Shown piece by piece: positions 23,884 to 49,955 of a DNA stretch of 64,000 nt. Each line of letters starts with the position of its first letter. Within the stretch, counting starts at the first letter, position 1. Made by a program: the position numbers and the translations under genes. The notes below the pieces were generated by a model. It was not told the origin of the DNA. It saw nothing but the letters and a program-made list of their open reading frames with translations, and searched no databases. The stretch is from Candidatus Latescibacterota bacterium (GTDB lineage Bacteria; Latescibacterota; UBA2968): positions 3,456,001 through 3,520,000 of the forward strand of contig OZ242195.1 in NCBI GenBank assembly GCA_965205975.1, read 5' to 3'.

Positions 23884-23919
23884 ACAAAAGTCAATGGAAT
23901 GTCTCAAGAGGATAATGAT

Positions 23920-25563
23920 ATGCAACATAAATTGGTCGCTGTAGTCGGCAGCACACCGCAAGTTATGACAGAAACTTTCTGGGCATTGCGTGTCCAGCGC
24001 AAAGTGCCCATTGATGAAGTATTTGTGATAACGACAACCGTAGGTAAAGAAACCTGTCAGAAACGCCTTTTGGATGAAGGCCGCTTTAAAAAGATGTTGT
24101 CAGATTACAATATCGATCCCAATACTGTCGCGTTCGGTCCCGATCATATCCAGGTATTTGAAGATGCTGAAGGTAATCCTTTAGACGATATCCGCACCTC
24201 GGAAGACAATCGCCTGGCCCGGGATCAACTTTTCCACTGGATTGAGAACTGGACGCAGAATGTTGATGTCGCTTTACACTGCTCGCTCGCAGGCGGACGG
24301 AAGTCAATGGGATACTTACTCGGTGCTGCTATTCAATTTTTTGGTCGGCCACAAGATCGCCTGTATCATGTGCTGGTCACACCGCAAGCAATTGAAACAA
24401 ATCGCGATTTCTTCTTTCCACCTGTGCGCGAAGCGCAAATCCCCACATCAGACGGGCAACACATTTCTACTGCTGATGTGCGTATTGAGTTGGCAGAATT
24501 GCCCTATGTATCGGTAAGAGATATATCCGCATTTGACGATGAAAACTATGACCTGATTCTACAGAAAACACAAGCAGAAGTGCGACGTGTTCCACGTCTA
24601 AAAGCAGAAAACAAGCGACTGAGAGAAACATCGGGCAATGCTGGCGGCTTGATCGGAAATAGCTTTGCAATGCAGAAAAACAAAGACCAGATTCGGCAAG
24701 CTGCTGATGCAGATGGTGCAACCGTGTTGATTTTGGGTGAAACGGGAACGGGTAAAGAACGGGCAGTTGAAGCACTACATGAACAGAGTGTGAGAAAGGA
24801 TAAATCATTCATAGCGATTAACTGTAGTGCATTTCCAGGTGAACTTTTGGATGTAGAGCTATTTGGTGCAGTTGAAGGCGCTTATAGTGGACAAGCCGGG
24901 CCACGCGAGGGTGCGTTTCGCGCAGCCGAAGGTGGTACCCTTTTCCTCGATGAAATAGGAGACTTATCACATGAAGGACAGGCGAAGCTATTGCGCGTAT
25001 TACAAGAAAAGAAAGTGCGTCCGCTTGGCAGTGATGAACAAGAGAAAGAAGTTGATGTACGCATTGTTGCGGCAACCAATCGCGATTTGAAGGCCATGGT
25101 TCAAGAAGGAACTTTCCGAGAGGACCTATTGTATCGCCTCAATGTTTTGACCATTGACATGCCGCCGTTGCGAGAACGACGCGAAGATATACCGGAGTTA
25201 ATCGACCTGTTTTGTGAACAGTTTAATGAGAAATACAAACGCAATGTTGTGGGCTTTGATACCCCAGCCATAGAAGCCATGTGTCGCTATACCTGGCCGG
25301 GCAATGTGCGCGAGCTTGAAAATGAAGTTGCGCGCATCGTCTCTGACTCACCACAGAGTGCATTTCGGGTGCATAAGGAAGACTTAGCCAAGCGTATTAT
25401 TGAATCGACAGATTTAGACACGGGTAGTGGTACGCTCAAAGAATTAGTGGCGCAATTTAAGAGGCATACGATTCAGGAAACATTGGCGCGAACACAGGGC
25501 AATGTTAAAAACGCCGCGAAGATACTGGGTATTGACGAATCAACGGTGAGACGAAATCGGTAG
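23920..25563 (+). CDS. CARF (NE0113/TIGR02584-like) + sigma54-interacting AAA+ + Fis-type HTH enhancer-binding protein
   Basis: VVGSTPQVMTET, LDDIRT, LHCSLAGGRKSMG, DRLYHVLV; GETGTGKE, ELFGAVEGAYSGQ, FLDEIG, RIVAATNRDL, FREDLLYRL, WPGNVRELEN; GNVKNAAKILGI. Confidence 0.92.
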   Translation: MQHKLVAVVGSTPQVMTETFWALRVQRKVPIDEVFVITTTVGKETCQKRLLDEGRFKKMLSDYNIDPNTVAFGPDHIQVFEDAEGNPLDDIRTSEDNRLARDQLFHWIENWTQNVDVALHCSLAGGRKSMGYLLGAAIQFFGRPQDRLYHVLVTPQAIETNRDFFFPPVREAQIPTSDGQHISTADVRIELAELPYVSVRDISAFDDENYDLILQKTQAEVRRVPRLKAENKRLRETSGNAGGLIGNSFAMQKNKDQIRQAADADGATVLILGETGTGKERAVEALHEQSVRKDKSFIAINCSAFPGELLDVELFGAVEGAYSGQAGPREGAFRAAEGGTLFLDEIGDLSHEGQAKLLRVLQEKKVRPLGSDEQEKEVDVRIVAATNRDLKAMVQEGTFREDLLYRLNVLTIDMPPLRERREDIPELIDLFCEQFNEKYKRNVVGFDTPAIEAMCRYTWPGNVRELENEVARIVSDSPQSAFRVHKEDLAKRIIESTDLDTGSGTLKELVAQFKRHTIQETLARTQGNVKNAAKILGIDESTVRRNR

Positions 25564-28091: not shown

Positions 28092-28159
28092 TAAGAATAA
28101 AGTGTATAGAAACCCATACGTGTGGGGACAATACGGTTTAATTTGAAAGGAGAAGCGTG

Positions 28160-29011
28160 ATGAATAGGACAGTGTTGAATCTTGAAACCGTGACACCAAT
28201 GTTTCTACATGGAGAGAATAGTCGAAATCTCGAACTTCGACCACCGCCATTCAAATCACTGATGCGTTATTGGTGGCGAACTGTGCAGGATTGCAACGAG
28301 ACATTTCTTCGAGAAAAAGAAGCAGCGTTATTTGGTAGTACAAAAGGTAAATCACCATTTTCAATTCGTATTTTAGGAGAAACGAAACTGGACTGTAGGA
28401 ACTATAAGCCGTTGCCTCATCGAACCGATAATCGTGGTTTTTTCGCAGATGCTTATAAAGAGGGACAGTCATTTGACCTGTATCTGATTATAACGAATGG
28501 CTCAAATGTCCCGAATTATGCACAGATTGCAAAACTTGGCTTACTACTCGGTGGTGTTGGCAATCGCTCTCGACGCGGATTCGGTTCGATCCGGGAAACA
28601 AGCTGGAATTTCACAAATGTGTCCAATCTGCGACAGGAAATTTTGGATACTCTCAACACTGTCGCAGACAATGATCGTTTTCAGATGAAGGGCAAGATCA
28701 TTGAATCCAAACTCACCCATTTCCCAAGCTATCCTGTTATTCAGTGTATATTTTTTGGCAACCCAACACCCGATGTTGACACCCTATTAAGAAAAATCGG
28801 ACAGGCGACACATGAAGCAAAGAGAAAAAATCGTGACCATACACTCGGAGAAGGTACGCCGCGTATGGCATCGCCTGTGATCGTTAGAATCCAAAAAGTT
28901 GGAAATAAATTTATTCCGGTTGTCACGCAACTTCACTCGATTTATCCGCAATACACGCCAAATAATTTTGAGCAGAAGCAAAAGGATTTTATTAACGCGA
29001 TCATTACGTAG
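28160..29011 (+). CDS. cmr1: Type III-B RAMP Cmr1
   Basis: LETVTPMFLHG, ELRPPPFKSLMRYWWR, EAALFGS, GGVGNRSRRGFG, RMASP. Confidence 0.92.
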   Translation: MNRTVLNLETVTPMFLHGENSRNLELRPPPFKSLMRYWWRTVQDCNETFLREKEAALFGSTKGKSPFSIRILGETKLDCRNYKPLPHRTDNRGFFADAYKEGQSFDLYLIITNGSNVPNYAQIAKLGLLLGGVGNRSRRGFGSIRETSWNFTNVSNLRQEILDTLNTVADNDRFQMKGKIIESKLTHFPSYPVIQCIFFGNPTPDVDTLLRKIGQATHEAKRKNRDHTLGEGTPRMASPVIVRIQKVGNKFIPVVTQLHSIYPQYTPNNFEQKQKDFINAIIT

Positions 29012-29022
29012 GAGGTATCCCA

Positions 29023-30906
29023 ATGAGTGGCAACCAGTCGAAACGTCTCATGCTCATGTTTACAATTGGTCCTGTACAATCGTTCATCGAAGCAGCCCGG
29101 AAGACAGAGGACTTGTGGATGGGGAGTTATATTCTGTCTTATCTCATCGCCAAAGCAATGGACAAAGTTCGAGGCGACGATATTGAGCTAATATATCCTG
29201 CTATTGGCAACCAATCGCCATTTGATTTTTGGCAGCAACAAGATTTCGCAACCCCATCTTTTCCCAATCTCTTTTTAGCAATTGGTAAAGGCACTGAGGT
29301 TTCTCAGGATGCGTTGGTCGAACTCGCAAAAGACGCTGAACGTACTGTAAAAACTGAATTTGAGCAAATGGCTAAATGTGTGATTGATGAAGCATTCAGC
29401 AAGTGGAGTGGCACTTATGTTGAGGAAGTGTTCAAACGACAAATCTCGGATTTTTTTGATATATATTGGGTGATTACTGAAGAAACAGATCAAAATTATG
29501 GGGATTGGTACGCCCACACCGCAGGTAGTCTTGCAGCTATCAAAAACTGCCGGACATTTGCACAAATCTGTGAGTTTGGACGAAAGTGTTCACTTGATGG
29601 AACACGCGAAATTCTCCATTTGAGGCAAGACGAACCTGTGCGAGAAGCAATGAAATGGTGGCAGGGTTTTGCTGAACGCGAACCAAAGTATTGTCGCGGA
29701 GAAGAGGCCCTCTGTGCTGTCTCACTAACCAAGCGAATGGGAAGACATTTTCTGGAGACCCAATCGGAATTTTCAGACGATTTTTCAGGCCAACCTCTGA
29801 GCTTTCCATCCACATCAGAGATAGCGACAGCGGACTTCAAAGAACAATTTCAATACAATATTGGGGCCTTAGGCATTTATGGAGATTTCGTTAAAGAAGT
29901 TAAAAAACTGAGGGCATTGGACAACAAACCAGCAGATATTCCAATTGTTCAACCCTTGCCAAAAGTCGGGATGCTCCAGGGGAATATTGACGGCGAATGG
30001 CTGTACGAAGAGACATGGAGCGAGTCCTATCTGAGAGGTTACTACAACATTGATGCAAAAAACGAGAAGAAGCAGATTAGTACTTGTAAGAGATTGCGTC
30101 AAAAACTTGTCCAATATCTCGGTGAACCGGGGCGATATTATGTCGCCATTGCACTTGATGGAGATAACATGGGCGAGAAGATTCGGGAAGCTAAAAGCAA
30201 GGAAGATCACAAAAAACGTAGCGGTGATCTGATTCAATACACGGAAGATGCTCGTCGGATTATTGAACAGGATCATCTCGGAAAGTTGATATATGCGGGC
30301 GGTGACGACATTCTTGCACTCACAAATCTTAAAGACCTCTTGCCTATATTGAAAGGGTTGCGTGAGAAATTCCCCAATTTCACGACAGCTTCGGCAGGCG
30401 TGTGTATTGCTCACAACAAGGTTCCGCTTGGAGATGTACTTCAGCAAGCGCGTCGGATGGAGAAAGCAGCGAAAAATGAAGGTGAACGTAATGCATTTGG
30501 AATCACACTGTTCAAACACTCTGGAAATATTAGCCAGGCGGTAACAAAGTGGACACACGGCGATTTGGATGTGCTCGACATCAGTGAGGAGTTGCTCAAC
30601 TTGTTGAGCGATAATGAAATTTCCAAGCGTTTTTTGTACGCTTTCCGTGAGACATTTGCAAAATTAATTGAAGACAAAGATGATTTTGGAGAACTGGGCC
30701 GTCACCTTATTCAAGCTGAGTTTGAACGGATTATGGAACGAGCACAGTCGAACAAAAAAACAGAATCCAAAGAGAGTCAACAAACCATCCATACACTTAC
30801 TCAACTCATCTATCATATCCAGCCTTTCTCTCACTTTCTCGGGTATTTAGAAATTATCAATTTCATTGCGAGGATAAAAAATGAAACTGTTTCTCCAACC
30901 CAATGA
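29023..30906 (+). CDS. cas10: Cas10/Cmr2, cyclase-competent, no HD nuclease domain
   Basis: IGPVQSFIEAARKTEDLWMGSYILS at the N-terminus, ALDGDNMG, IYAGGDD. Confidence 0.95.
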   Translation: MSGNQSKRLMLMFTIGPVQSFIEAARKTEDLWMGSYILSYLIAKAMDKVRGDDIELIYPAIGNQSPFDFWQQQDFATPSFPNLFLAIGKGTEVSQDALVELAKDAERTVKTEFEQMAKCVIDEAFSKWSGTYVEEVFKRQISDFFDIYWVITEETDQNYGDWYAHTAGSLAAIKNCRTFAQICEFGRKCSLDGTREILHLRQDEPVREAMKWWQGFAEREPKYCRGEEALCAVSLTKRMGRHFLETQSEFSDDFSGQPLSFPSTSEIATADFKEQFQYNIGALGIYGDFVKEVKKLRALDNKPADIPIVQPLPKVGMLQGNIDGEWLYEETWSESYLRGYYNIDAKNEKKQISTCKRLRQKLVQYLGEPGRYYVAIALDGDNMGEKIREAKSKEDHKKRSGDLIQYTEDARRIIEQDHLGKLIYAGGDDILALTNLKDLLPILKGLREKFPNFTTASAGVCIAHNKVPLGDVLQQARRMEKAAKNEGERNAFGITLFKHSGNISQAVTKWTHGDLDVLDISEELLNLLSDNEISKRFLYAFRETFAKLIEDKDDFGELGRHLIQAEFERIMERAQSNKKTESKESQQTIHTLTQLIYHIQPFSHFLGYLEIINFIARIKNETVSPTQ

Positions 30907-32056
30907 TACCTTCTTTTTTCGCGACGGGCGTCCTTTTACAAAAGGTGAACAGTCTGAAGGTCATTCAATTTTTCCACCCCTTCCCTCGACAGTTCTCGGT
31001 GCGTTGCGTACTGCATACATCGCTGAATTTGGTGATCTATCGCTTTTCTATTCCGGCGGGATGCGAGAGACGATTGGTACGCCGGAATCATTGGACAATG
31101 CTATTCAAGTGCGCAGTGTTTTTCTTGCAAATAAGCGAAACAATCAGATGGATCGAATGGAAATATTTTTTCCGGTGCCCCTTGATCTGGTATATAAAAA
31201 AACAAAAACTGAAAAGAGAGATGATCATACCCTCCTTCATTTACTGGTGCCGCAATCTAAAAATTTTGTGTCGAATGGGATAATCAGCACGCCACTTACA
31301 TGGCTAAATTCCGAGTCTATTGATTTCGATGCAGATGGATTGTTGCGACTGGGGGCAATCACACGATACTTACAAGGAAACAGTCAGAACCTGCTTCTTA
31401 CAAATCGGGCAACATTGGTTAAGCGCGAAACCAAAACGGGCATCGCGCGGGATAGACACACTTTGTCATCCGAAGAACACATGTTGTATCGTGTTGATAT
31501 GTCCAGATTTAAAAATAGAGATGGCAATTACGGCTTTTTGGTAGAATATGAATGCTCCAGGAATTTGCCACAAAAAGGACTTTTGAAATTAGGTGGAGAA
31601 GGCAAAGGTTTTGTCTATCAGCACAGCAACTATGATATTGATCCACTGTCCAGCCGTCTTGAGGCAGTCAAACGTGCCATCCAATCAACAAACAGATTCA
31701 AGCTATATTTTGCAACGCCGACCATATTCCGGAACGGATGGTTGCCTTCATGGTTGAATAGCGATACGCTTTCGGGTGAATACCCACTGGAGAATACGGC
31801 ACCAATTTCAATCAAATTAATCACCGCCGCGGTTGGTAAACCTGTTCCTGTTGGCGGATGGGACATGGCAAAAGGTGAGGCAAAACCCACTTATCGCGCA
31901 GTACCTGCTGGTAGCGTCTATTACTTTGAACTGATGGATAAAAATCGAATTGATGATTTAATCGCCGCTTTTCACTACCAAAACATCAGCGAGGAGCGTT
32001 CTGAGGAGGGATTTGGACTTACTCTTATCGGGGTCGCAAAGGAGGGAAATGCATGA
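30881..32056 (+). CDS. cmr3: Cmr3
   Basis: FFRDGRPF, PPLPSTVLGALR, LGGEGK, GGWDM, AVPAGSVY, EGFG. Confidence 0.95.
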   Translation: MKLFLQPNDTFFFRDGRPFTKGEQSEGHSIFPPLPSTVLGALRTAYIAEFGDLSLFYSGGMRETIGTPESLDNAIQVRSVFLANKRNNQMDRMEIFFPVPLDLVYKKTKTEKRDDHTLLHLLVPQSKNFVSNGIISTPLTWLNSESIDFDADGLLRLGAITRYLQGNSQNLLLTNRATLVKRETKTGIARDRHTLSSEEHMLYRVDMSRFKNRDGNYGFLVEYECSRNLPQKGLLKLGGEGKGFVYQHSNYDIDPLSSRLEAVKRAIQSTNRFKLYFATPTIFRNGWLPSWLNSDTLSGEYPLENTAPISIKLITAAVGKPVPVGGWDMAKGEAKPTYRAVPAGSVYYFELMDKNRIDDLIAAFHYQNISEERSEEGFGLTLIGVAKEGNA

Positions 32057-33324
32057 AGACTCTTATAACACCAGTCGGCACATCGCTCTTTACAAACTAT
32101 CTTGACAAGAATGGAGACAGTGCCTTTAGCCACAATTATGAAACAATCGGAAAATCTCCTGCTTCGGAATGGAATGCGTATGATTATGAAATTGAGGATC
32201 TAAAAACGTCCAGTCTTGAATTTATAAAACAAGAAAAGGATTCCGCATCTGCCGAACTTCAGAGTATCACTAAAATTCAAGACAAACTGAAAGAGGACCT
32301 CAAGGTTCGTCTATTTGCCTCAGACACAATTGCTTCGCGATTGGCTGCGGAAATTTTGGCGGATGATACAGTGGCTTCGGTTTTAGGCGATAATATCTCT
32401 GTCGAATTTGATACGCAAACAGATATGATCAAGGGGCTTCAGGTTGAAGATCCCAAAGTCTTTTCGAATGAAGGCATGACCAATCTGATACGAAAGATAG
32501 ACGAAAATGCTGGAGGGTACTGGCCAGCACTTGCGATCAATATCACCGGAGGGTACAAAGCCACCTTGCCATATCTGACGATTTTAGCACAAGTCAAGCG
32601 AGTTCCGCTTTACTACAACTTTGAGGATACTGACGCACTCATCAAAATTCCGCAGTCACCGTTGGTTATTGATTTTGGCTTGATTGAACGCCATTCGGAC
32701 ATTCTCATGCAAATCCATGAGGGGATAGAAAATTGGTCGCAATTCAGAAGCCAACATTACCAAGCTGTTCAAGATTTGGAAGCATTTATTGAAATTGATG
32801 GAAACTACGCTCTCTTGTCACCCATTGGCGAAATTTTTTGGGAGGAGCATCAAAGATACTTTATCGTCGAATTGCCAGGAGGAAGTTATTATAGCTATGA
32901 TGGAGACAAACGTCAGTTAATCGATGCAGCTATTAAAGAGCTTTATGGACGGTTAGATACTGTTCTATCTGATACCTGTCTATTAGACAGTGACATGAAT
33001 CTTATACCTGACAAATGCTACCAAAAAATCCGCAATTTGGGACACAATGACGACTTGAATCACGGTGGACAAATTCCAAACCCGACAAAGCCAAAAAATT
33101 TGGATCGGGAAATCTTCATTTTCAAAGCGACAGGTGGAGTTCATAGACGCTTACTATATAACTTCGAGGTTAAGGAACAAAGGACTACTCGACTTAGAAT
33201 ATTCGATACCCTTTGTGAAGATTTCGATCATAACACGTATATTGCCGATTGGAAAAATAAATTTGGTGATGAAAATTTTCCTGATATCAACTTTGTCACA
33301 CACACATTTGAAATTCCTTCATAG
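32053..33324 (+). CDS. APE2256-type CARF protein with C-terminal RelE-like region (Cami1-like effector candidate)
   Basis: TPVGTS, SAELQSI, SDT, INITGGYKA; C-terminal IFIFK..RRLLYNF..LRIFD..DHNTY. Confidence 0.8.
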   Translation: MKTLITPVGTSLFTNYLDKNGDSAFSHNYETIGKSPASEWNAYDYEIEDLKTSSLEFIKQEKDSASAELQSITKIQDKLKEDLKVRLFASDTIASRLAAEILADDTVASVLGDNISVEFDTQTDMIKGLQVEDPKVFSNEGMTNLIRKIDENAGGYWPALAINITGGYKATLPYLTILAQVKRVPLYYNFEDTDALIKIPQSPLVIDFGLIERHSDILMQIHEGIENWSQFRSQHYQAVQDLEAFIEIDGNYALLSPIGEIFWEEHQRYFIVELPGGSYYSYDGDKRQLIDAAIKELYGRLDTVLSDTCLLDSDMNLIPDKCYQKIRNLGHNDDLNHGGQIPNPTKPKNLDREIFIFKATGGVHRRLLYNFEVKEQRTTRLRIFDTLCEDFDHNTYIADWKNKFGDENFPDINFVTHTFEIPS

Positions 33325-33350
33325 GTTTTATTTAAAAAGGAGAAGCCAAA

Positions 33351-34313
33351 ATGTTTAAACAAGCTAAACCCCTCTTTCTTATCGTCGAAACTCCACTCCA
33401 CGCTGGCAGCGGCAATGATCTTGGCATCGTTGATCTCCCGATCCAGCGGGAGAAGCATACGGATTATCCAAAAATCGAAGCATCCGGACTGAAGGGCAGC
33501 ATACGTGAAATTTTTAATGCTCAAAAAAATAAATCTGAAATAGAACTTGTATTTGGTTCTGAGCAAGGTGACTTACACGCAGGTGCTTTGGGATTTACCG
33601 ATGCACGTCTCTTGCTTTTTCCTGTCAAGTCGGTCAAAGGCGTGTTTGCCTATGTGACATGTCCCGCAGTTTTAGAGCGTTTCAAATACGACCTTTCCAT
33701 CTGCCAGCCGAACATTGTATTTGCTGACGATCTTCCCGGCAGTGATACGGTAACGACAGGGAGCGGACTCATTGTGGAAGATAGAAAAATTGTGCTGGAA
33801 GAATACACATTCGCGGTTAGTGAAAGCCAAGAATGTGATGCTGTTGCAGAGTGGATTGCGAAACAGGTTCTGCCACCGGATTCGGGCTATAACTATTGGC
33901 GCGATAAGATGAAACGGGACCTCGTGGTATTGAGCGATGATGATTTCCGAGATTTTGTGACGCTTTCGACAGAAGTCATTGCCCGCACCAAAATCGACAG
34001 TGAAACCGGTACCGTTGCAAAAGGTGCGCTGTGGTACGAGGAATACTTGCCGGCTGACTCTATTCTCTATTCGCTCGCCTTGACCACACCCATCTTTAAG
34101 GAAAATGACGCCGATAAAGGTATTTTCCAGTTGACCGATCAGGATAAAGAAAAGAAACACGATGAGTCGGAAAAGGTAATGGACTTCTTTGTGGATGGAT
34201 TGCCGAATGTCATTCAGATCGGTGGCAATGCAACCGTGGGTAAGGGTATAGTTCGGACACACGTTTATCAAAATGGAGGAGAAAACCATGCCACAAACTC
34301 CAACAATGCGTAA
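33351..34313 (+). CDS. cmr4: Cmr4 (target RNA cleavage subunit)
   Basis: TPLHAGSG, IVDLPIQRE, DARLLLFPV, LWYEEYLP, QIGGNATVGKG. Confidence 0.96.
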   Translation: MFKQAKPLFLIVETPLHAGSGNDLGIVDLPIQREKHTDYPKIEASGLKGSIREIFNAQKNKSEIELVFGSEQGDLHAGALGFTDARLLLFPVKSVKGVFAYVTCPAVLERFKYDLSICQPNIVFADDLPGSDTVTTGSGLIVEDRKIVLEEYTFAVSESQECDAVAEWIAKQVLPPDSGYNYWRDKMKRDLVVLSDDDFRDFVTLSTEVIARTKIDSETGTVAKGALWYEEYLPADSILYSLALTTPIFKENDADKGIFQLTDQDKEKKHDESEKVMDFFVDGLPNVIQIGGNATVGKGIVRTHVYQNGGENHATNSNNA

Positions 34314-34686
34314 GGGAATTGAACAAGGGCGTGCCAAGTATGCTTTTGAGGCAGTAAGCAGTGTTAATGGTGATAGATTGAAGAAAGAGTATAAATCCGC
34401 TGCAAAGAAACTCCCCGTTTTAATAAAAACGAATGGACTTGGGCAGTCTTTGGCATTCATAAAAAAAAGGAATAATGGGCACGACAGGCTATACGAACAA
34501 ATTGGAAACTGGCTCCAAGCCGTAGATACCAAACAGTTGGTTTCGACTGGCGAACTTGTGGAACAAGTCATCGAACTCAAATCACCCGTCTATCGACAAG
34601 TTACAGTCGAAACCCTCGCGCTACTCAATTGGATTCGCCGATTTGTCGATGGACTCATGGATGATGTGGAGGAGAATGATGCTTAA
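34288..34686 (+). CDS. cmr5: Cmr5 small subunit
   Basis: EQGRAKYA, LPVLIKTNGLGQSLAF, WIRRF. Confidence 0.93.
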   Translation: MPQTPTMRKGIEQGRAKYAFEAVSSVNGDRLKKEYKSAAKKLPVLIKTNGLGQSLAFIKKRNNGHDRLYEQIGNWLQAVDTKQLVSTGELVEQVIELKSPVYRQVTVETLALLNWIRRFVDGLMDDVEENDA

Positions 34687-35761
34687 TTTCCATCCATTGG
34701 ATACGAGGGAACTGGTTCGCTCAAATAATCAGATTGATAATTTCGCGTTGCGTTACCGACATTCCTTGCAGATTACTCGCGATGGTGAAAAATACAAATT
34801 TCAGCTTTCCGATCCGACGTTTAGTAAATCTTATGATGAATTGATTGAGCAGTTGCTGGAACGGCAAACAGAGCAACTCCTGCAATTTGTTATGCGTGGT
34901 ATCATGCTTTACTGCGTTGATGCAAGGGTTGATTGGCGACTAATTGTTGGCCTCGGCAGTGAGCATGTTCAAGAGACAAATATGACACTCCATCATATCT
35001 ATGGCATTCCGTACATTCCCGGAAGTGCTGTGAAAGGCGTGTTGCGGCATTGGTGGTTGCAAGAGAATTTCGACAATAACGAAAACAGAGCACTGAAAGA
35101 TGAAAATTTTCTCGCTCTCTTTGGAAGTCAAAACCGGCGCGGAGAAGTGCAATTTCTCGACGCTTATCCCGAAGAAGTCCATTTTGCGAAAGATATTATG
35201 AATCCTCATTATCCCGAATATTACAGTGGTAGCGCACCTCCAACAGATTCTCAAAATCCAAGACCTATAAATTTTTTAACTGTTGAGAAGACCGCCTTTC
35301 GGTTCGCTTTCTTAGCGAAGAAACAGGAACTTCTCGATAAACTTAAGGCGCGATTTGAAGATGTATTAGAACTGAAGGGCATCGGTGCGAAAACAGCGGT
35401 TGGTTATGGATATTTCCGAAATTTTGAAGATCAGACCGACAAAATTATTGACACATTCAAGCGTCAGCAACAAGCTGAACGGGAAGAAGCGGAAAGACAG
35501 CAAGAAGCCGAGAGATTGGCAAGTCTTTCTCCTGTTGAACAACTTGTCGAAGAATTGAACGGTCTCGCTGACAATTCTGTGGATGAAGCGCGTGTTACCG
35601 ACATCTACAACACAGAACTTCAATCTCTTGAAGGTGATGAGCAAATGATGGTCGCACAGGCATTGAAAGCTTATTGGGAACGTATCAATAAGTGGAGTGG
35701 CGGTTCGAGGAAACAGAGAACAAAGGTGCAAAAGGTTAAGTCAATTTTGGGAGAGAGCTGA
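34679..35761 (+). CDS. cmr6: Cmr6 with C-terminal helical extension
   Basis: RLIVGLG, GIPYIPGSAVKG, FLDAYP, DIMNPHY, GIGAKTAVGYG. Confidence 0.95.
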   Translation: MLNFHPLDTRELVRSNNQIDNFALRYRHSLQITRDGEKYKFQLSDPTFSKSYDELIEQLLERQTEQLLQFVMRGIMLYCVDARVDWRLIVGLGSEHVQETNMTLHHIYGIPYIPGSAVKGVLRHWWLQENFDNNENRALKDENFLALFGSQNRRGEVQFLDAYPEEVHFAKDIMNPHYPEYYSGSAPPTDSQNPRPINFLTVEKTAFRFAFLAKKQELLDKLKARFEDVLELKGIGAKTAVGYGYFRNFEDQTDKIIDTFKRQQQAEREEAERQQEAERLASLSPVEQLVEELNGLADNSVDEARVTDIYNTELQSLEGDEQMMVAQALKAYWERINKWSGGSRKQRTKVQKVKSILGES

Positions 35762-36834: not shown

Positions 36835-39800
36835 ATCAGGAAGGATTACCCGACTACTGGGGTATTGAAACCGTATCTTCGAGATGGATCGACATGGGGC
36901 GACTGTAATTGTAAATCAGGAAGGATTACCCGACTACTGGGGTATTGAAACTCATTGTCAAGAGGTGGGGCATCTGTGTTGGGGTTGATTGTCCAATCAG
37001 GAAGGATTACCCGACTACTGGGGTATTGAAACTCTACTTGTCCCCGTCAATCACGCGGACGATTGTTGCGTATCAGGAAGGATTACCCGACTACTGGGGT
37101 ATTGAAACTATCTCGGCATTGCGACCTTGCCACATAATTTGTCTCTTCATCAGGAAGGATTACCCGACTACTGGGGTATTGAAACTCTTTTGAGTTTTTG
37201 TGCAAATCAAATAAGGTTCTGTGTATCAGGAAGGATTACCCGACTACTGGGGTATTGAAACATATCAACGTTGAATTTGATCGTAAACAGGTGGCATTGT
37301 GTATCAGGAAGGATTACCCGACTACTGGGGTATTGAAACTTAGAACACGTCACAGAATGCCCCCAGGGGCACAGAAACATCAGGAAGGATTACCCGACTA
37401 CTGGGGTATTGAAACTTATATATCCTTTTTGATATTCGTGCTTCTCTACGTCCATCAGGAAGGATTACCCGACTACTGGGGTATTGAAACCGGATAGCTT
37501 TGTTGTTGATCGTGGACTTCGTCTGTTCCGATCAGGAAGGATTACCCGACTACTGGGGTATTGAAACGTAAAGTCTAATCGTCAAAGTTGGACCTTCTGA
37601 GTATATCAGGAAGGATTACCCGACTACTGGGGTATTGAAACGATTATCGGTCACCGTCTATGCACCCTTGAGTGGTTGGCCGATCAGGAAGGATTACCCG
37701 ACTACTGGGGTATTGAAACTCATTCTTCTGTCATTCGCCATACAATGTTCCCCTTTATCAGGAAGGATTACCCGACTACTGGGGTATTGAAACCAGTCCG
37801 ATCATTGTAAAAGCCATTCATGATGTCTTTATCAGGAAGGATTACCCGACTACTGGGGTATTGAAACGAACAATGAGGCAATTTTCCAAACTGATCGGGG
37901 GTCAAAAACATCAGGAAGGATTACCCGACTACTGGGGTATTGAAACTATCCAGCAACTCGCCCCAACTTCACTCTGAACCTTGCGCCAAATCAGGAAGGA
38001 TTACCCGACTACTGGGGTATTGAAACCTCTCTATTGTCGCCGCACCTGATTGTCGTTGAATCCATCAGGAAGGATTACCCGACTACTGGGGTATTGAAAC
38101 TTAAATCTCTCATCACGCGACCTCATTACGCCGTACCACATCATCAGGAAGGATTACCCGACTACTGGGGTATTGAAACCAAACGTTGCCGCGCGCCGTT
38201 CTTGCACAATTTGACGCATCGATCAGGAAGGATTACCCGACTACTGGGGTATTGAAACCTGCGATTATTGCGTCGTGATCGGTCCAATGGTCGTTCGCTG
38301 ACATCAGGAAGGATTACCCGACTACTGGGGTATTGAAACTTGACTGCGATAAGACAGGCGTTGCCTGATTACGTGCGCTCATCAGGAAGGATTACCCGAC
38401 TACTGGGGTATTGAAACTTGACGGGTTAGCCGCATGCAAGCGGTCGGCTGCCATTATCAGGAAGGATTACCCGACTACTGGGGTATTGAAACCGGTTCAG
38501 CATCCGAATATCCCCCATAACGCCATGCAATATCAGGAAGGATTACCCGACTACTGGGGTATTGAAACTCTGTCGCTGCTGCTCACGCATAATCTGTGCC
38601 ATACCAATCAGGAAGGATTACCCGACTACTGGGGTATTGAAACTCAGACTACGAACTTGTAGGCCAGAGTGTTGTTATTATCAGGAAGGATTACCCGACT
38701 ACTGGGGTATTGAAACTTGTCCCAGAAGGGGCCACTTGGGCAAGCCCTGGACAACAAATCAGGAAGGATTACCCGACTACTGGGGTATTGAAACAATACT
38801 CAACTTCGTTCTTCATCACCCACAACCTTCAATCAGGAAGGATTACCCGACTACTGGGGTATTGAAACTTATGCATGCAGCGAAAGCCATAATAAAGGCG
38901 ATTTCGTCATCAGGAAGGATTACCCGACTACTGGGGTATTGAAACCGACCCCTTGCCGTCGCCATACCCACTGCCATCATCGTATCAGGAAGGATTACCC
39001 GACTACTGGGGTATTGAAACTTTGTGTGGGCTGAAACCAACACAACAGAAAGTTTTGACATCAGGAAGGATTACCCGACTACTGGGGTATTGAAACTCAC
39101 GCAGACCATCTAAGCTGTCGCACATCTCCTCGCCATATCAGGAAGGATTACCCGACTACTGGGGTATTGAAACCAAACTCTCGACCGAGCAAAACTCCCC
39201 GACGTTTTGGCTAATCAGGAAGGATTACCCGACTACTGGGGTATTGAAACCTTTTTTAATGCTCGGAAACCCTTGTTTTTCAACATTTTAATCAGGAAGG
39301 ATTACCCGACTACTGGGGTATTGAAACTTTTCAGGATGTTTTTCTTTCTTTGTTTTCCAACTTTTTCAATCAGGAAGGATTACCCGACTACTGGGGTATT
39401 GAAACTGATTTACGCGAAAAACTGCCCGTATGTTTTCGTTTTTTAATCAGGAAGGATTACCCGACTACTGGGGTATTGAAACTATTCGGCATATAGTGCT
39501 GGGAATATTGACCCAGTCATCAGGAAGGATTACCCGACTACTGGGGTATTGAAACTCGAGTTGCCCGGCTCAAAAAGCGGAAAGGAATACATGCATCAGG
39601 AAGGATTACCCGACTACTGGGGTATTGAAACCTTTGTTCGCGCAGGCTTATTCGCTGTTGATCGCTGTTGATCAGGAAGGATTACCCGACTACTGGGGTA
39701 TTGAAACTCACTTCTCAACCCACGCTTTGCGGCGGCGTTGCACCGCTGCATCAGGAAGGATTACCCGACTACTGGGGTATTGAAACAGTATTTTTTGATA

Positions 39801-39840
39801 TATGCCCGAATGGCCGTGCGTTCCGCTATATCAGGAAGGA
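36835..39840 (+). CRISPR. Main array: 39 identical 37-bp repeats, 39 spacers of about 36-44 bp, then an 11-bp partial repeat cut by a MITE
   Basis: Repeat ATCAGGAAGGATTACCCGACTACTGGGGTATTGAAAC counted manually from 36835 to 39786; partial ATCAGGAAGGA at 39830-39840. Confidence 0.98.
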
Positions 39841-40064
39841 ACGCGATGTGTGACTTCAAAACCGCCACATAGAAATACCGATAAAGTAGGTATAAGAAAG
39901 TCAAAACCACTGGATTACTGGCGTTGTCCTTGCGCGTGGCGGCTAACACCCTGCCGCAATGACGGGCGAGGCATGCCTCGCCCCTACAAAAATCCTTATT
40001 GCGCTGACAGCTGACCACTCATTGCTTGTTTTCTTGACCATTATTCAAAAGTCACACCTGACGT
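39841..40064. mobile_element. IS982-end MITE inserted in a CRISPR repeat, carrying a REP copy
   Basis: ACGCGATGTGTGACTTCAAAA ... AAAAGTCACACCTGACGT; flanks CAGGAAGGA / CAGGCATGA. Confidence 0.8.
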
Positions 40065-40111: not shown

Positions 40112-40122
40112 TGTGCTCGGAT

Positions 40123-40156
40123 GTGCGTTTTTGCACAGATGCGTGCATTTTTGCAC
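40123..40156. promoter_or_regulatory. Putative enhancer (UAS) pair 3
   Basis: GTGCGTTTTTGCAC (40123-40136) and GTGCATTTTTGCAC (40143-40156). Confidence 0.8.
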
Positions 40157-40257: not shown

Positions 40258-40259
40258 CT

Positions 40260-40276
40260 TTGGCACGCTTTTTGCA
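40260..40276 (+). promoter_or_regulatory. sigma54 promoter P3 (mini-array)
   Basis: TTGGCACGCTTTTTGCA, GG-N10-GC; predicted +1 near 40287, about 6 nt before the repeat. Confidence 0.9.
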
Positions 40277-40292
40277 TATAAATAGGGCGATC

Positions 40293-40405
40293 ATCAGGAA
40301 GGATTACCCGACTACTGGAGTATTGAAACCTGGGCGAGGCATGCCTCGCCCCTACATCCACACCAACACCAGGAAGGATTACCCGCTTTATTGGGATCGT
40401 GAAAT
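40293..40405 (+). CRISPR. Mini-array: repeat (1 mismatch) + 38-nt self-matching spacer + degenerate repeat
   Basis: Repeat 40293-40329; spacer CTGGGCGAGGCATGCCTCGCCCCTACATCCACACCAAC 40330-40367; ACCAGGAAGGATTACCCGCTTTATTGGGATCGTGAAAT 40368-40405. Confidence 0.88.
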
Positions 40406-40413
40406 CTTTTTTC

Positions 40414-40538: not shown

Positions 40539-42464
40539 ATGACAACCCCTGCGATTGAACAGTCCCCCACATCTCTCGTAGATACCCTCTGTGAAAAAGC
40601 ACAGGTGCTTTTGGAAAAAAACAATGTGGATGGCGTAGAGGCACTCGCATCAGAAGCCAGTGCGCGCGACCCGGCGTGCAACCGCGCACATCAATTGATG
40701 CTCCGCGTAGCCCTCATCCGAGACGAACAGGACAGGGCACAAACATTGCTCAATCGGTGGCGCGATTTGCCGGTAGATGATGCGTTTGGTGAATGGGGTG
40801 TACTCGCAGAAGAAATGAACGACATACAGGCAGCCGTTGAAATCTATCAGGCGCACCTATCCCAATGTCCTGACGATGCCAAATCCCTATTTGGACTGGC
40901 AATGCTACACGCAGACCGCAATGAAACGGGCCTCGCGCAATCGCGCTTGCAAATCCTCATACAGCACCATGCAGACCATACAGAAGGAATCTTTGAACTC
41001 GCGCGCCTGTACGAAGAAGACGGCATGATGGGCCTCGCGCAAGAACTCTACGCACGGGTACTCGAACTCGACCCGGACCATGCGGGCGCACTTGCGGGCA
41101 AACAACTCGTCGGCGCACAATTGCAAACATCCCAAACCTTACCAGATGCAGAAATCAAAAACCACCCCGATAGTGCCGCCCTGATCCTCCGGCTATTTGC
41201 CGCGCGAAAAGACGTGTACGCACGCCAATGGATTGATGAAGACGGAAAAACCGGCTATGTCCCCGTGCGCGAACCCCTCACAGAAGACGCGATCCAATCC
41301 CATCTCCGGGGAGATACAACTGTAGGCGTCTATCCAATTTTTGACCGGGACAAAGCACAATTTTTGGCCCTGGATATCGACATCAAAAAAGAAGCCCTCA
41401 ACACAGCGCAGCAAAACAACACCTTAATGGATGCGTTGCGCGAACAAGTATGCAAAGACATCCGACGGGTTTGCGCGGGCTTCGCATCCCTCAACCTCCC
41501 CGTTCACATCGAAGACAGCGGAAACAAAGGCGCGCATATATGGCTCTTCTTTGAAAAACCCATCCGCGCATGCGACCTGCGCGCTTATGGCCACGCATTT
41601 GCAAAGCGATTTGGCCCAGCATCAGAAGATTTACAGTGGGAGTGGTTTCCCAAACAAGACGCCGTTGGGGAAGATGAACTTGGCAACCTGATCAAACTAC
41701 CACTCGGCATCCACCGCAAAACAGGACGCCGCGCGTTATTTATCGACACAGAAGGACACGCACTCGCAGATCAAGATCGGGTATTGCGCGACATCAAACC
41801 CATAGACACACAGGCTTATGACCATGCGGTCTCCCGCCTGGGCGGAGGAGAGACCCACACGCCCCTGAAACAAGTTGATCTGAAAAAAGCATTTCCAGAA
41901 TTTCAACCCATTATGCAAGGCTGTGCAGTCATTCGCGCACTCACAGAAAAAGCCTTTGCAACCGCCCATCTGGTACACATTGAACGCCATGTCTTAAAAT
42001 GCGTATTTGGGCATCTCGACGACCAGGGGCGCACCTTCTTACACGCGGTAATTGGCGCGTGTGCAGACTACAAAGCCGAAATAACCGATTATCAGATCGA
42101 ACGCCTGCATCCGCATCCCATTGGCTGTCCGAAAATCCGCAAACACCTGCCCGACCTCATTGAAACCGTCCCCTGCAACTGCGAATTTGACCTACCAGAA
42201 GGCGGGTACCCCTCTCCCTTGCTACATATCGACCCGGCATTTACCGCTGGCATGGGACGTGTGGATCAACCGCAAAACCGCGAAATAGTAGATCGCTACA
42301 TCACACTGCGCCAGCAAGCCGCACAGGTAATGGCCGACCTATCGCGTACAGAAGATGAAATGCGCGACATATTGCGCCACCGCAAAGGCAAAATCTCCAC
42401 AGGCGTCTGGGTAGTCACAGCGGATGACGCTGGACGATTGCAAATAGGCATTGAGGCGGTTTAA
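40539..42464 (+). CDS. CRISPR-associated primase-polymerase (CAPP): TPR + AEP + Cys-rich PriL-like C-terminus
   Basis: TPR repeats; YARQW, ALDID, EDSGNKGAHIWLFF, FPKQ, GNLIKLPLGIH; GCAVI..HIER..C..Y..GCPKIR..CNC..YPSPLLH; directly upstream of cas1. Confidence 0.9.
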   Translation: MTTPAIEQSPTSLVDTLCEKAQVLLEKNNVDGVEALASEASARDPACNRAHQLMLRVALIRDEQDRAQTLLNRWRDLPVDDAFGEWGVLAEEMNDIQAAVEIYQAHLSQCPDDAKSLFGLAMLHADRNETGLAQSRLQILIQHHADHTEGIFELARLYEEDGMMGLAQELYARVLELDPDHAGALAGKQLVGAQLQTSQTLPDAEIKNHPDSAALILRLFAARKDVYARQWIDEDGKTGYVPVREPLTEDAIQSHLRGDTTVGVYPIFDRDKAQFLALDIDIKKEALNTAQQNNTLMDALREQVCKDIRRVCAGFASLNLPVHIEDSGNKGAHIWLFFEKPIRACDLRAYGHAFAKRFGPASEDLQWEWFPKQDAVGEDELGNLIKLPLGIHRKTGRRALFIDTEGHALADQDRVLRDIKPIDTQAYDHAVSRLGGGETHTPLKQVDLKKAFPEFQPIMQGCAVIRALTEKAFATAHLVHIERHVLKCVFGHLDDQGRTFLHAVIGACADYKAEITDYQIERLHPHPIGCPKIRKHLPDLIETVPCNCEFDLPEGGYPSPLLHIDPAFTAGMGRVDQPQNREIVDRYITLRQQAAQVMADLSRTEDEMRDILRHRKGKISTGVWVVTADDAGRLQIGIEAV

Positions 42465-42521
42465 GAATTAAAAATTAAGAATTAAGGGGATCTCACGTCT
42501 TACCGGCTTTCGGGGTTTAAT

Positions 42522-43523
42522 ATGGCCGTACTCTACGTCACAGAAACCGGTGCCCAGGTGCGCCGCGAAGGCGAGCGATTGGCCGTGTGGAAAGGCAAGA
42601 AAAAACTCCACACATTGCCTGCGTATGACCTGCACCAGATGGTCTTATTTGGCAACATCGGAATAACACCTGCGGCAATGCACACCGCGCTGATGCAGGG
42701 CATCGACCTCGTATTACTCAGCACCACGGGCAGTTATCGCGGGCGACTCGTCGGACCGCAGGGCCGCAACGTAATACTGCGGCAAATGCAATACCGTCGC
42801 TACGAAGATGAAGATTTTCGATTGGGTGCTGCACGGGGATTTGTATCGGGCAAAATCCGCAACATGCGTACCCTCATCATGCGCCTTGCACGACGCCGAA
42901 ACCGGGACATTGCCCACACCGCACAGCGACTGCGCGCACTCTTAAAACAGATAGACCGCATTGACAATGCCGATGCACTGCGCGGAATCGAAGGTGCGGC
43001 AACAGCGACTTACTTCGGTGCGCTGAGCCAATTTTTACCCTCAGCATTTCCCTTTGTCAAACGCACGCGGCGCCCGCCCAAAGACGCGGTCAATGCCATG
43101 TTGAGCTTTGGCTATACGCTGCTGTCTTCGGACATGGAATCGGCTGTCTTGCGCGTGGGATTAGATCCCTATATCGGTTATCTGCATCTCGTGGATTACG
43201 GACGTCCCTCGCTCGCGCTGGACATGATGGAAGAATTTCGTCCGGTAATTGTAGATGCAATGGTACTGGACCTGCTAAATCACGGACAAATCAAAAAAGA
43301 GGACTTTGAACAGCGCGATGGGGGCGTATTTTTATATGGCGATGGACGACAGCAACTAATCCGCGCCTATCAGGACCGGGTCGCAACTGAAGTTCAATAT
43401 CTACAACCCAGTGGACAGGTACAAAAAGTGCCCTATCGCCAGTGTTTCGAGTTGCAAGCTCGCCGTCTCATCCGCATGTTGCGCGGCGAAGACGCGGCAT
43501 ATCAGCCATTTTTAATCCGATGA
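42522..43523 (+). CDS. cas1: Cas1
   Basis: LRGIEG, RRPPKDAVNAMLSFGY, GLDPYIGYLH, SLALDMMEEFRP. Confidence 0.97.
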   Translation: MAVLYVTETGAQVRREGERLAVWKGKKKLHTLPAYDLHQMVLFGNIGITPAAMHTALMQGIDLVLLSTTGSYRGRLVGPQGRNVILRQMQYRRYEDEDFRLGAARGFVSGKIRNMRTLIMRLARRRNRDIAHTAQRLRALLKQIDRIDNADALRGIEGAATATYFGALSQFLPSAFPFVKRTRRPPKDAVNAMLSFGYTLLSSDMESAVLRVGLDPYIGYLHLVDYGRPSLALDMMEEFRPVIVDAMVLDLLNHGQIKKEDFEQRDGGVFLYGDGRQQLIRAYQDRVATEVQYLQPSGQVQKVPYRQCFELQARRLIRMLRGEDAAYQPFLIR

Positions 43524-43541
43524 GTATTGGAGATCAACGCA

Positions 43542-43823
43542 ATGCTTGTGGTAGTAGCCTACGACATAGCCGACAAACGCCGATTGCGGCGGGTGATGAA
43601 ACTCATGGAAAACTACGGATCGCGCCGACAGAAAAGCGTTTTTGAATGCAACTTGAATGAACGGCGATTTCTCGCGTTGCGGTCTAAAATGTCGGAATTG
43701 ATTGACCCGGAAGACGATCGCATCTGTTATTATCATCTATGTGCAGCATGCGAAAAGCGGGTTGAAGGTATATCCAAACGCGAACATCCCGTGCCAAAAC
43801 GCGAGGATTATGTGATTGTGTGA
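43542..43823 (+). CDS. cas2: Cas2
   Basis: VVAYDIAD.RRL, RQKSVFEC, EDDRICYY. Confidence 0.96.
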   Translation: MLVVVAYDIADKRRLRRVMKLMENYGSRRQKSVFECNLNERRFLALRSKMSELIDPEDDRICYYHLCAACEKRVEGISKREHPVPKREDYVIV

Positions 43824-48239: not shown

Positions 48240-49955
48240 TCAGGTATGAACATACATATCCAAAAACCGCTTTTCTCCTTCCGAACTGCCAATAAGGAGA
48301 ATTTCCGCTGCTTTTGGTAGCGGTTTATTGGGATCGGGATTGAGTTGCATTTCATGGTTATCGTTAAGTGCGATAATCGTGCATCCCGTATTCCTGCGAA
48401 TAGCTGAATTAGCAATCGTCTTTCCAACAAGAGAAGAGGGCATTTTCATCCTGAACACGCTGATATCCTCACTAAACACGCTCAGGCTCTCTGCCACCAT
48501 CAGGGTATCACTGCGTTTTAAGAAATTGAAAATTGCATCTGCGCCCATCGACGCATAAGACATGACGAAATCCGCGCCCGCGCGGTGCAGTGTTGCGATA
48601 TTTCTCTCTTGCGTAACGCGGCTGATAATCTGAATTTCCGGATTTAATCGCCGGCAATAAACCGTGAGATAAACATTGATATCATCGTCGTGCGTCGTAA
48701 TAATAACCGTCAACGCATTCATAATCTCGGCTCTTTTTAAAACCTCAAAATCTGCGGCATTGCCCACAATACAATTATCGAGCCTCTGAGCCTGGTCTGC
48801 ATCTTTTTCCACAATCCGATAGTCGATACCTTGTTCCACAAGCGTGCGCGCAGCCTCCATGCCAACACCACCACCACCAATAATCACAACGGGAGCATTT
48901 GAAACTTTGTAGATACAGAACAACTCGTTAAATCTATCCAATTGACTCTGTGTCCCCGTCATAACCAGCACAGTGTGGGGACCAATACGGGTATCGGGCA
49001 ATGCCGACTGAAAAATACCGCGTTCCCAAACGCCGACCGCCGTCAGACCCAGTTCTCGGCGCAGGCCAATCTCCTCGAGAGTTTTGCCCACAAGAGGCGT
49101 ATGGGCCGCCGTGGTCTCGGCAATTAACAAATCGTCGTACTGACCAATCACATGCGCTGCGGTCTCCCCGCTCTGGGTGCGTCGCGCAAGAGATGAGCCG
49201 AGCATCTTGTCAAGTTGAAGCACATGGTCGCATCCCGCCAATTGGAGAATATCCACAGAATCGGGATCGTCTGCTCTGGCAATAATCGGCACAGTGGGAT
49301 TGAGATCGCGTACAGTAAATGCGATATGGGTATTAATCGGATCGGTATCTGTTGCCGCAACAAGCGCCGCTTGCTCAATCTGCATTTTTTCATAGGTATC
49401 CGGATTGTCCAAATCCCCAACCACAACATTGATACCCTGATCGTAAAGTTGCTGTGCATGCGCCAAATCTGGCGTGAGGAGATAATAAGAATAGTGGTAG
49501 CGATCCAGCTTGTTGATAAGCGCTTGTGTAATGGGGTCATGGTGGGTCAAAAGAACATGCTCTCGCGTACCGCGGGGCAACTGACGCGGCGCGCGGGCTT
49601 CGGATTGGGCTTGAATCCACGGTGCGTAAAAAAACTGAATAAAAGTAAATGGCAGAACAATGAGCAAAAAAATCATACCCGTCAGCAAAACCAGCATGGA
49701 GAATAAACGCCCCAGATCCCCCTGAAAGGTAATATCGCCAAAACCCAATGTTGACATAACCGTAAGCGTCCAATAAAAACCCGTAAACCAGCTAAACTCC
49801 TGGCCCTCACGGAGCATGATCAAATGAAAAAGAACGCTAAAAATTGTGACAATCACAGAAAAGGCCAGCAGCAATTTGAACAGCACACCGAGATTTCGCC
49901 GAGCTGTGCGCTTTCCCAATAAAAAGGCGAGTTGTGGGGCAAGGCCTTTGAGCAT
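48240..49955 (-). CDS. Potassium channel with TrkA-N/TrkA-C (RCK) domains
   Basis: YWTLTVMSTLGFGDI selectivity filter, two RCK units (IIGGGGVG); start MLKG at 49955. Confidence 0.92.
   Translation of the reverse strand: MLKGLAPQLAFLLGKRTARRNLGVLFKLLLAFSVIVTIFSVLFHLIMLREGQEFSWFTGFYWTLTVMSTLGFGDITFQGDLGRLFSMLVLLTGMIFLLIVLPFTFIQFFYAPWIQAQSEARAPRQLPRGTREHVLLTHHDPITQALINKLDRYHYSYYLLTPDLAHAQQLYDQGINVVVGDLDNPDTYEKMQIEQAALVAATDTDPINTHIAFTVRDLNPTVPIIARADDPDSVDILQLAGCDHVLQLDKMLGSSLARRTQSGETAAHVIGQYDDLLIAETTAAHTPLVGKTLEEIGLRRELGLTAVGVWERGIFQSALPDTRIGPHTVLVMTGTQSQLDRFNELFCIYKVSNAPVVIIGGGGVGMEAARTLVEQGIDYRIVEKDADQAQRLDNCIVGNAADFEVLKRAEIMNALTVIITTHDDDINVYLTVYCRRLNPEIQIISRVTQERNIATLHRAGADFVMSYASMGADAIFNFLKRSDTLMVAESLSVFSEDISVFRMKMPSSLVGKTIANSAIRRNTGCTIIALNDNHEMQLNPDPNKPLPKAAEILLIGSSEGEKRFLDMYVHT

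Follow-up and report, generated by a model that had tools for sequence, protein, structure and literature searches.

Organization of the type III-B locus

The window (the whole 64,000-nt stretch of DNA analysed here, from whose first base positions are counted) belongs to a 5.56-Mb Candidatus Latescibacterota genome, hereafter G000, and several sequencing runs that contain part of it are labelled as sponge metagenome. Its type III-B CRISPR locus is laid out in the order CARF5-AAA-HTH activator, cas6, DUF1232 gene, cmr1-6 (with a CARF7-RelE gene among them), a second CARF7 gene that is shortened at its 5' end, array, P3 unit, CAPP (TPR-primase/polymerase), cas1 and cas2. The cmr1-6 genes (28157..35761, + strand) include a Cas10 of 627 aa in which GGDD is present and an HD domain was not matched. 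Inside this stretch lies the CARF7-RelE gene (32053-33324, +), the top structural matches of which are 8PHB and 8PHJ, entries that we take to be Cami1. Cami1 is described as a CARF-RelE protein that is switched on by cA4 and arrests translation (PMC11229360). The second CARF7 gene (35697-36497) lacks its 5' part in both G000 and G008, while relatives encode about 375 aa.

The main array (36835..39840, +) comprises 39 perfect 37-nt repeats, 39 spacers of 36-44 nt and a further repeat cut after 11 nt, and is preceded by a conserved leader (36500-36834), an 83-nt piece of which (36706-36788) is repeated with 87 % identity at 20843-20925, at the start of a DMFA2-like gene. The last repeat is split at 39840/39841 by a dispersed, MITE-like element of about 224 nt (39841..40064) with a REP core at 39964. 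One dispersed element end is copied at 11884-12073, 27623-28092 and 39835-40064, and one element copy surrounds a transposase-like fragment between DUF1232 and cmr1. Beyond the element lie a variant repeat R' (40075-40111, +), the P3 unit and the CAPP, cas1 and cas2 genes (40539..43823, +). A potassium-channel gene with TrkA_N/TrkA_C and Ion_trans_2 domain matches is located further downstream (48240..49955, - strand), and a McrB-like AAA gene with a partner, together with a BsuBI/PstI-type restriction-modification fusion, sits immediately upstream of the CRISPR locus (12181-18135). Rfam returned six matches, every one below the gathering score.

Three predicted sigma54 promoters and a CARF activator

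The first gene of the locus (23899..25563, +) encodes a CARF5 (NE0113-type)/sigma54 AAA+/Fis-HTH protein (Pfam PF09623, PF00158 and PF02954; PADLOC: CARF5 1e-73, RtcR_PspF2 2e-102), an architecture for which a PADLOC profile exists. Its close homologues come from Candidatus Latescibacterota; among the best 120 matches listed to residues 1-260, the first 100 or so are CARF-AAA fusions and the remainder stand-alone CARF proteins. The CARF domain had a weak match alone among solved structures (E value 0.08). Walker A/B and R-finger motifs are conserved across the homologues and the AAA motifs are intact here; the sigma54 loop is mostly GAYTGQ or GTYTGQ (pattern found in 66/120 homologous proteins) and takes the variant form GAYSGQ in the present protein. 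CARF-AAA-HTH proteins have been predicted to act through sigma54 (PMC4012209), and rpoN was found in the genome.

Three putative promoters share one design and align with each other: P1 (25598..25745, +), preceding cas6 (25790-26752); P2 (26778..26926, +), preceding DUF1232 and the cmr genes; and P3, each with tandem enhancer sites and a sigma54 -24/-12 site. The two P3 enhancer sites (GTGC-N6-GCAC; 40123..40156, +) stand 118 and 138 nt upstream of its -24/-12 site (40261..40276, +). The tandem motif occurs three times in the 5.56 Mb, each time 112-138 nt 5' of a -24/-12 site in the locus; the genome has 157 loose sigma54 matches, none of which beyond P1-P3 has an exact enhancer site upstream. 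An earlier note on this DNA had proposed a sigma54-driven P3 starting about 6 nt before a repeat, and the -24/-12 consensus, its spacing, the tandem sites, the activator and rpoN all fit such a promoter, with a predicted start at about 40287. We propose that the activator is an enhancer-binding protein that senses cyclic oligoadenylate (cOA) and that P3, whose most likely target operon is CAPP-cas1-cas2, probably opens these genes in a cOA-inducible manner. The three-promoter CARF-sigma54 regulon is the conserved, more interesting and also the newer feature of the locus, and seems to make spacer acquisition answer to the alarm signal of the type III system.

The repeat-spacer unit behind P3

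P3 lies between two repeats, R' and R1, which border it directly. The segment so enclosed (40112-40292) is bounded exactly by repeats in G000, G016, G019 and G020, like a captured spacer of 181-185 nt. R1 (40293-40329, +) has the sequence of the 39 perfect array repeats except for one change, G27A at 40319, which breaks the C16-G27 stem pair. It is followed by a 38-nt spacer (40330-40367, +), bases 3-22 of which form a perfect 20-nt palindrome, a degenerate repeat R2 (40368-40406, +), whose 3' half is common to the solitary repeat of G016, and, right after it, a T6 run (40407-40412, +). The unit thus has the outline of a regulatory mini-array, repeat-spacer-degraded repeat with its own promoter. 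The repeat, spacer, degenerate repeat and T run agree with the earlier note, as do the stem change, the palindrome and a hairpin between main array and unit. The latter is A/T-rich (40226-40257, +), folds with a z score of -3.25, is kept in 5/5 P3 copies and may stop read-through from the array. The account of the array context was incomplete, the unit being there as described but R' and the element splitting the last repeat having been overlooked. The T run, likewise, is present but was not called a terminator, and a conserved TTGACA stands next to it; terminator calling found none between P3 and CAPP. This TTGACA (40414-40419, +), with a weak -10 in a feature that extends to 40442, scored below the threshold of the promoter scanner and is a possible basal sigma70 promoter of the adaptation genes.

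An assembly error at the unit is unlikely, because two contigs from run X2 (a different sample from the study with the best-matching run) match both junctions with 0 differences, over 40024-40359 and 40338-41300; each enters the spacer by 30 letters, our rule for bridging being 31.

The spacer matches the predicted 5' UTR of a host gene

The spacer is identical over 38/38 bases to 49993-50030 (- strand), as the earlier note had stated, and this is its sole other copy: at 0-3 mismatches the 38-mer has two sites in the genome, compared with 33 exact sites for the 24-nt REP core that it contains. The match fills the space between R1 and R2 exactly, without a base to spare on either side, and 14 unique flanking bases (2+12) link the 38-mer to this single site, 9.6 kb from the spacer. 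The chance of a random host 38-mer covering such a core is about 2e-4, and capture was therefore either biased toward the hairpin or selected. With its normal length, exact repeat borders and unique chromosomal source, the 38-mer has the features of an acquired self-spacer.

The protospacer, a REP plus flanks, falls in the predicted 5' UTR of the potassium-channel mRNA, between a sigma70-like promoter directed into the gene (TTGACA-17-TATTTT, 50079-50051) and the ATG at 49955. The -35 block of this promoter is retained in 10/10 aligned genomes, an anchor script having extracted 10/20 target loci (the 38-mer survey covered all 21 genus genomes). The target RNA is predicted to be antisense to the guide, i.e. 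the orientation fits. Between the 8-nt tag and the target flank, the mismatches reported earlier at -1, -2 and -3 are there; further differences at -7 and -8 and identity at -4, -5 and -6 had been omitted.

The same note had aimed the guide at REP-containing transcripts in general, which is unlikely. We compared 26 sites within six mismatches of the first 32 guide bases; the 24 other REP sites all mismatch position 1 and/or 2, and all mismatch within positions 27-32 as well. TtCmr is reported to need the 5' guide positions for cOA production and to have its seed at the 3' end (PMC8376896). Broad REP silencing was rejected on these grounds.

The guide looks disarmed

Across 10 genomes, base G27 is invariant in the 461/461 repeats that stand before a spacer of normal length; the 4-bp stem is intact in 456 of them. 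For R1 in its context, stem pairs 16-27 and 17-26 have a probability of 0.00-0.01 versus 0.83 with the consensus base, suggesting poor processing by Cas6; the upstream repeat thus lacks the Cas6 stem that a regulatory mini-array keeps. The guide itself is predicted to fold into a hairpin of -16.5 kcal/mol over bases 3-22, more stable than that of any of the 38 main-array guides it was compared with (lowest value -14.3, median -4.6), and the target RNA folds into the same hairpin. The predicted guide-target duplex, at -87.9 kcal/mol, is far beyond the hairpins, and the 8-nt tag is intact. Both caveats that had been attached to the self-guide, the stem change and the palindrome, are therefore strong ones: the stem is broken, the guide is folded and, on these folding models, the guide looks disarmed. 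The R1 change is also the kind of nearby sign of inactivation expected of an acquired self-spacer, its effect on Cas6 being predicted. Two lone repeat-like stretches lie 100-310 kb from the locus (G000:C1:3144660-3144698 and 3353805-3353843), one of which shares the G>A of R1.

The P3 slot in related genomes

The P3 segment was found at 83-90 % identity in four other genomes, i.e. in 5/53 of the order; the compared genomes are kin and the counts not independent. All five are among the 8/31 genomes with the CARF fusion, and CAPP is directly downstream of P3 in each. In 5/5, a repeat starts at a distance of 17-18 nt from the -12 site and a T run comes after it, so that the position is conserved, and the canonical stem is kept in 1/5 of these repeats. 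The content of the slot varies: seven P3 copies hold one repeat without a spacer (four), a small ORF, a host repeat element, or the 38-mer (G000 alone). A solitary degenerate repeat with the spacer absent follows P3 in G016 and G013. The slot of G020 contains a 174-nt insert with a 55-aa hydrophobic ORF, and that of G019 a 104-nt insert that is largely another dispersed repeat. In contigs of runs X6 and X7, which belong to two further studies, the sequence continues past the unit with 77 and 76 nt missing; both runs also contain the target, which, in metagenomes, is not assignable to the same genome as the P3 contig. Run X5 does not span the slot.

The 55-aa ORF of G020 (G020:C1:5213775-5213948, minus) directly follows the last base of the post-P3 repeat and was seen in 1/21 genomes. 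The host repeat in the G019 insert, also carried by G015, has more than 40 matches in each of five genomes searched; as a self-guide this insert was rejected, its first 17 bases matching nothing outside the CRISPR locus among the matches listed. In G015 the G019-type insert is present, P3 is absent and CAPP-cas1 is broken, and in G019 P3 is retained although cas1 is deleted. Two more distant genomes have the activator, of which G047 has CAPP without P3, and in G048 CAPP was not matched. Scans of JGI metagenomes yielded 0 hits to the exact P3 pattern and, with CAPP, 0/44 candidates.

The 38-mer occurs in 3/21 genus genomes, twice only in G000; G003 and G008 have the target without the spacer, and the direction is therefore from target to spacer. 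Judging by this distribution, the spacer is younger than a REP insertion restricted to a few species, and the 3' half that R2 has in common with G016 suggests an older two-repeat slot in which content was gained and lost. The earlier note had proposed to look for P3 with a self-matching mini-array in relatives and named a recent REP insertion or unrelated spacers as the contrary outcome; it is this contrary outcome that relatives display, their slots being either without a spacer or filled with unrelated inserts. A conserved self-targeting guide is not supported, with the 38-mer in 1/7 P3 copies and the target REP in 3/21 genomes: spacer and target are not a pair conserved in related loci, and non-conservation across species is what an acquired self-spacer would display.

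Transfer of P3-CAPP from a G016-like donor was considered and rejected, the gap in identity between CAPP (95.6 %) and the flanking genes (91.5-94.3 %) being too small. P3 as a second acquisition leader was also rejected; it bears no resemblance to the true leader, which is conserved at the 5' end in the 7/7 genomes shown.

Gene-sized inserts of 1167 and 648 nt lie between intact repeats in G013 (G013:C168:17616-18782 and 19204-19851), the 648-nt one consisting of a ribosome site, an ORF and a stop, and the 1167-nt one containing a homologue of that ORF and another ORF that is truncated where the repeat begins or ends. Long-spacer capture by CAPP-Cas1-Cas2 is a possible origin; of 11 candidates for a viral origin of the long insert, none was confirmed. 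At the trailer ends of G016, G019, G015 and G047, a reverse-transcriptase element/group II intron, transposase/IS sequences, PIN-type TA pairs and other genes stand between decayed repeats, labels that rest on ORF sequence.

Self-spacers as background

Perfect self-matches are not confined to the P3 slot. The main arrays of G016 and G020 each hold one (40/40, with 12/35 spacers searched, and 41/41, with about 28/75 searched); none was found in G008 (about 19/31 searched), and none of the 39 main-array spacers of G000 is a perfect match. Both are in sense orientation, judged by the reading frame in G016, where the target gene is presumably DnaA from a motif, and by the G000 homologue in G020, and should therefore be harmless to an RNA-targeting system. 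Less regular cases include spacer 1 of the G016 array (L051:12679-13600), which matches the G000 chromosome over 39/39 bases with no G016 match listed; spacers 3 and 12 of that array, which look like joins of two host pieces; and main-array spacer 26 of G000 (38795-38831), with 94 % identity over 33 nt, with a gap, to G000:C1:2776146-2776178.

In one type III-A system, most new spacers are reported to be host-derived, favouring hairpins, promoters and 5' UTRs (PMC8860593), and type III self-targeting is reported to be escaped through repeat SNPs or through excision of the spacer plus one repeat (PMC7951960). Both escape states are seen at P3 slots. The spacer fits the class of acquired self-spacers and is most likely incidental.

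Interpretation

We consider it probable that P3 is a cOA-inducible promoter for the spacer-acquisition genes and that the self-spacer is a strain-level, disarmed passenger. P3 would then be the third promoter of a small CRISPR regulon. A type III complex that meets foreign RNA makes cOA, as is established for the family, Cas10 needing 5' guide pairing for this synthesis in the account of PMC8376896. The CARF5-AAA-HTH protein would bind cOA and, as the exclusive placement of the tandem enhancer sites suggests, act from these sites to open the three sigma54 promoters, i.e. cas6, DUF1232 with the interference genes, and P3 with CAPP-cas1-cas2, so that infection would lead to more spacer acquisition; CAPP is reported to work with Cas1-Cas2 in adaptation (PMC8211822). 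The P3 transcript would start in a decayed array trailer holding one or two leftover repeats and read through into CAPP-cas1-cas2. Cas1-Cas2 presumably captured 38 nt of a nearby hairpin-bearing host 5' UTR and placed them, by whatever route, between the leftover repeats, where the spacer would owe its persistence to being disarmed, with a promoter that is silent by default, a disrupted Cas6 stem in R1 and a guide closed by its own fold.

Several observations fit this reading poorly. TTGACA suggests that CAPP has a promoter of its own, and the P3 RNA could terminate at the T6 run. G019 keeps P3 without cas1. The spacer is still 38/38 and antisense, unlike the sense self-spacers of the main arrays, and the P3 segment is unlike an array leader, which makes spacer entry at this slot hard to account for. 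A preference for hairpins is known from one type III-A system and may not extend to CAPP-linked Cas1-Cas2. Finally, the activator has the variant loop GAYSGQ, and its cOA binding is a prediction.

The opposite view, that the guide is active, we regard as unlikely. The P3 guide, produced once a phage had triggered cOA and acting against the potassium-channel mRNA, would keep Cmr making cOA without phage and hold the regulon on. Speaking for it are the 38/38 match with its exact borders, its antisense orientation to a predicted 5' UTR (10/10 aligned genomes retain the -35 block), the flank unpaired at -1 to -3, the intact tag and a duplex far stronger than the hairpins; moreover, a Cas10 with GGDD and no HD match would spare self-DNA, and a CARF7-RelE effector is present. 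Against this, the 38-mer is in 1/7 P3 copies, its target REP is confined to 3/21 genomes, the stem is broken and the guide folded, the flank is identical to the tag at -4, -5 and -6, and P1 and P2 would already supply positive feedback without a self-guide. The outcome, dormancy through the Cami1-like effector or a knock-down of potassium transport, is improbable to a like degree. Of the inducible self-targeting crRNA with cOA feedback put forward in the earlier note, P3, the activator and the self-spacer hold up and a conserved guide and general REP targeting do not; a version with one target survives as an outside chance. It is similarly doubtful that P3, captured between two repeats like a 181-nt spacer, forms a self-sustaining alarm with a guide against an ever-present host mRNA; that the first phage detection would lock the cell into making cOA, arresting translation in the manner of Cami1 and acquiring spacers seems hardly more convincing, and we give as little credence to the weak repeat and folded guide being a throttle and relatives using other cargo, e.g. 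a small membrane peptide.

We find it slightly less plausible still that the position is an inducible cassette slot, in which the adaptation machinery drops cargo (a spacer, a small gene or a repeat element) behind P3 and selection keeps what is useful during infection, the self-spacer included. The hydrophobic 55-aa ORF of G020, present from the first base after the repeat in 1/21 genomes, the gene-bearing 648- and 1167-nt inserts between intact repeats in G013, and the repeats on both sides of P3 in G000, G016, G019 and G020 would all be accommodated. However, 4/7 slots hold no cargo, and the one cargo that lineages share, the insert of G019 and G015, consists mostly of a dispersed host repeat with over 40 matches in every one of five genomes searched; in addition, trailer ends accumulate debris, including a group II intron, IS elements and TA pairs.

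It is very unlikely that the 38-mer came without Cas1-Cas2, copied by REP insertion or gene conversion or produced by a wrong assembly. The REP core does have 33 exact copies and host repeats do insert at the array end; nevertheless, the match extends over unique flank bases (2+12) and is delimited by the repeat border on either side, its length is normal for spacers (36-44 nt), X2 carries both junctions with 0 differences and G003 and G008 have the target without the spacer. In addition, a Y1/RAYT transposase (PF01797) was not found in G000 (98 % complete), the control being positive in 6/14. Least credible is a decoy, a short solitary-repeat RNA from P3 that would titrate Cas6 or Cmr subunits and dampen the response irrespective of spacer content, a negative feedback of the kind ascribed to solitary repeat units, since the constant position of the repeat 17-18 nt after the -12 site in 5/5 genomes, with a T run next, is set against repeats that decay differently, a canonical stem lost in 4/5 and a terminator that was not called.

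Comparison with known systems

CRISPR mini-arrays and cr-like regulatory RNAs (CreA, scaRNA and tracr-L; PMC10120712) share with the P3 unit, in outline, the plan of an intact upstream repeat, one spacer, a degraded repeat, an own promoter and a host target. As described there, they are conserved, belong to types I, II and V and pair partially at a promoter next to a PAM. The P3 unit, in contrast, is type III-B, with a perfect match, an RNA target and an unconserved spacer; its match is to the potassium-channel 5' UTR rather than a partial one to a cas or cargo promoter. It fails three defining tests, namely conserved pairing, an intact upstream repeat and a partial promoter match. The same account judges type III mini-arrays to be unconserved, target-less and probably non-functional, and differs from the present case in that here the position is conserved and the content is not (PMC10120712). 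Accidental self-targeting spacers, as reported in PMC6990116, PMC7951960 and PMC8860593, resemble ours in being strain-level and host-derived, from a hairpin-bearing 5' UTR, with a mutated repeat adjacent and relatives without the unit; the P3 spacer differs in lying outside the main array and behind a separate inducible promoter.

For the regulon, the closest parallels are Csa3a/Csa3b, in which CARF likewise links cOA to adaptation and cmr transcription. Csa3 is described as an archaeal CARF-wHTH protein, Csa3b repressing adaptation (PMC7480081), whereas the protein predicted to activate adaptation in the present locus is a bacterial sigma54 enhancer-binding ATPase. RtcR/PspF-like CARF-AAA-HTH proteins have the same domain order of CARF, NtrC-like AAA+ and HTH; RtcR is described with a divergent CARF, in RNA-repair control or near restriction systems (PMC4012209), in contrast to the CRISPR-type CARF5/NE0113 of the present activator, its type III locus and its three predicted promoters, all within that locus. 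CalpL-CalpT-CalpS also leads from cOA to transcription via a sigma factor, there through a protease that releases the sigma factor and, in that account, no sigma54 activator (PMC11229360). In CAPP-TPR adaptation operons, too, a TPR-primase/polymerase adjoins cas1 and cas2 within a type III locus; the sigma54 control predicted here does not feature in the description of those operons in PMC8211822. By analogy, the regulon would work like Csa3 or CalpLTS, with a sigma54 activator instead.

The literature titles and abstract openings searched contained no type III-linked CARF-sigma54 regulon, although the CARF classification behind the PADLOC names may list the fusion, and no inducible type III self-guide or natural feed-forward cOA amplifier. 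Type III adaptation is inefficient, and we know of no priming step for it; if the activator senses cOA, phage detection would be coupled to new spacer acquisition in bacteria. A working self-guide would amount to feed-forward amplification of cOA in nature, while a non-working one would make the locus a clear natural case of a tolerated antisense self-spacer. The three promoters, with their enhancer sites and the activator, are delimited sharply enough to go straight into a reporter assay.

Congeners retain the sigma54 frame (activator, P1-cas6, DUF1232, array and P3-CAPP) and differ in the type III effectors inside it, with cmr in G000 and G008 and other GGDD-Cas10 sets in G013, G015, G016, G019 and G020.
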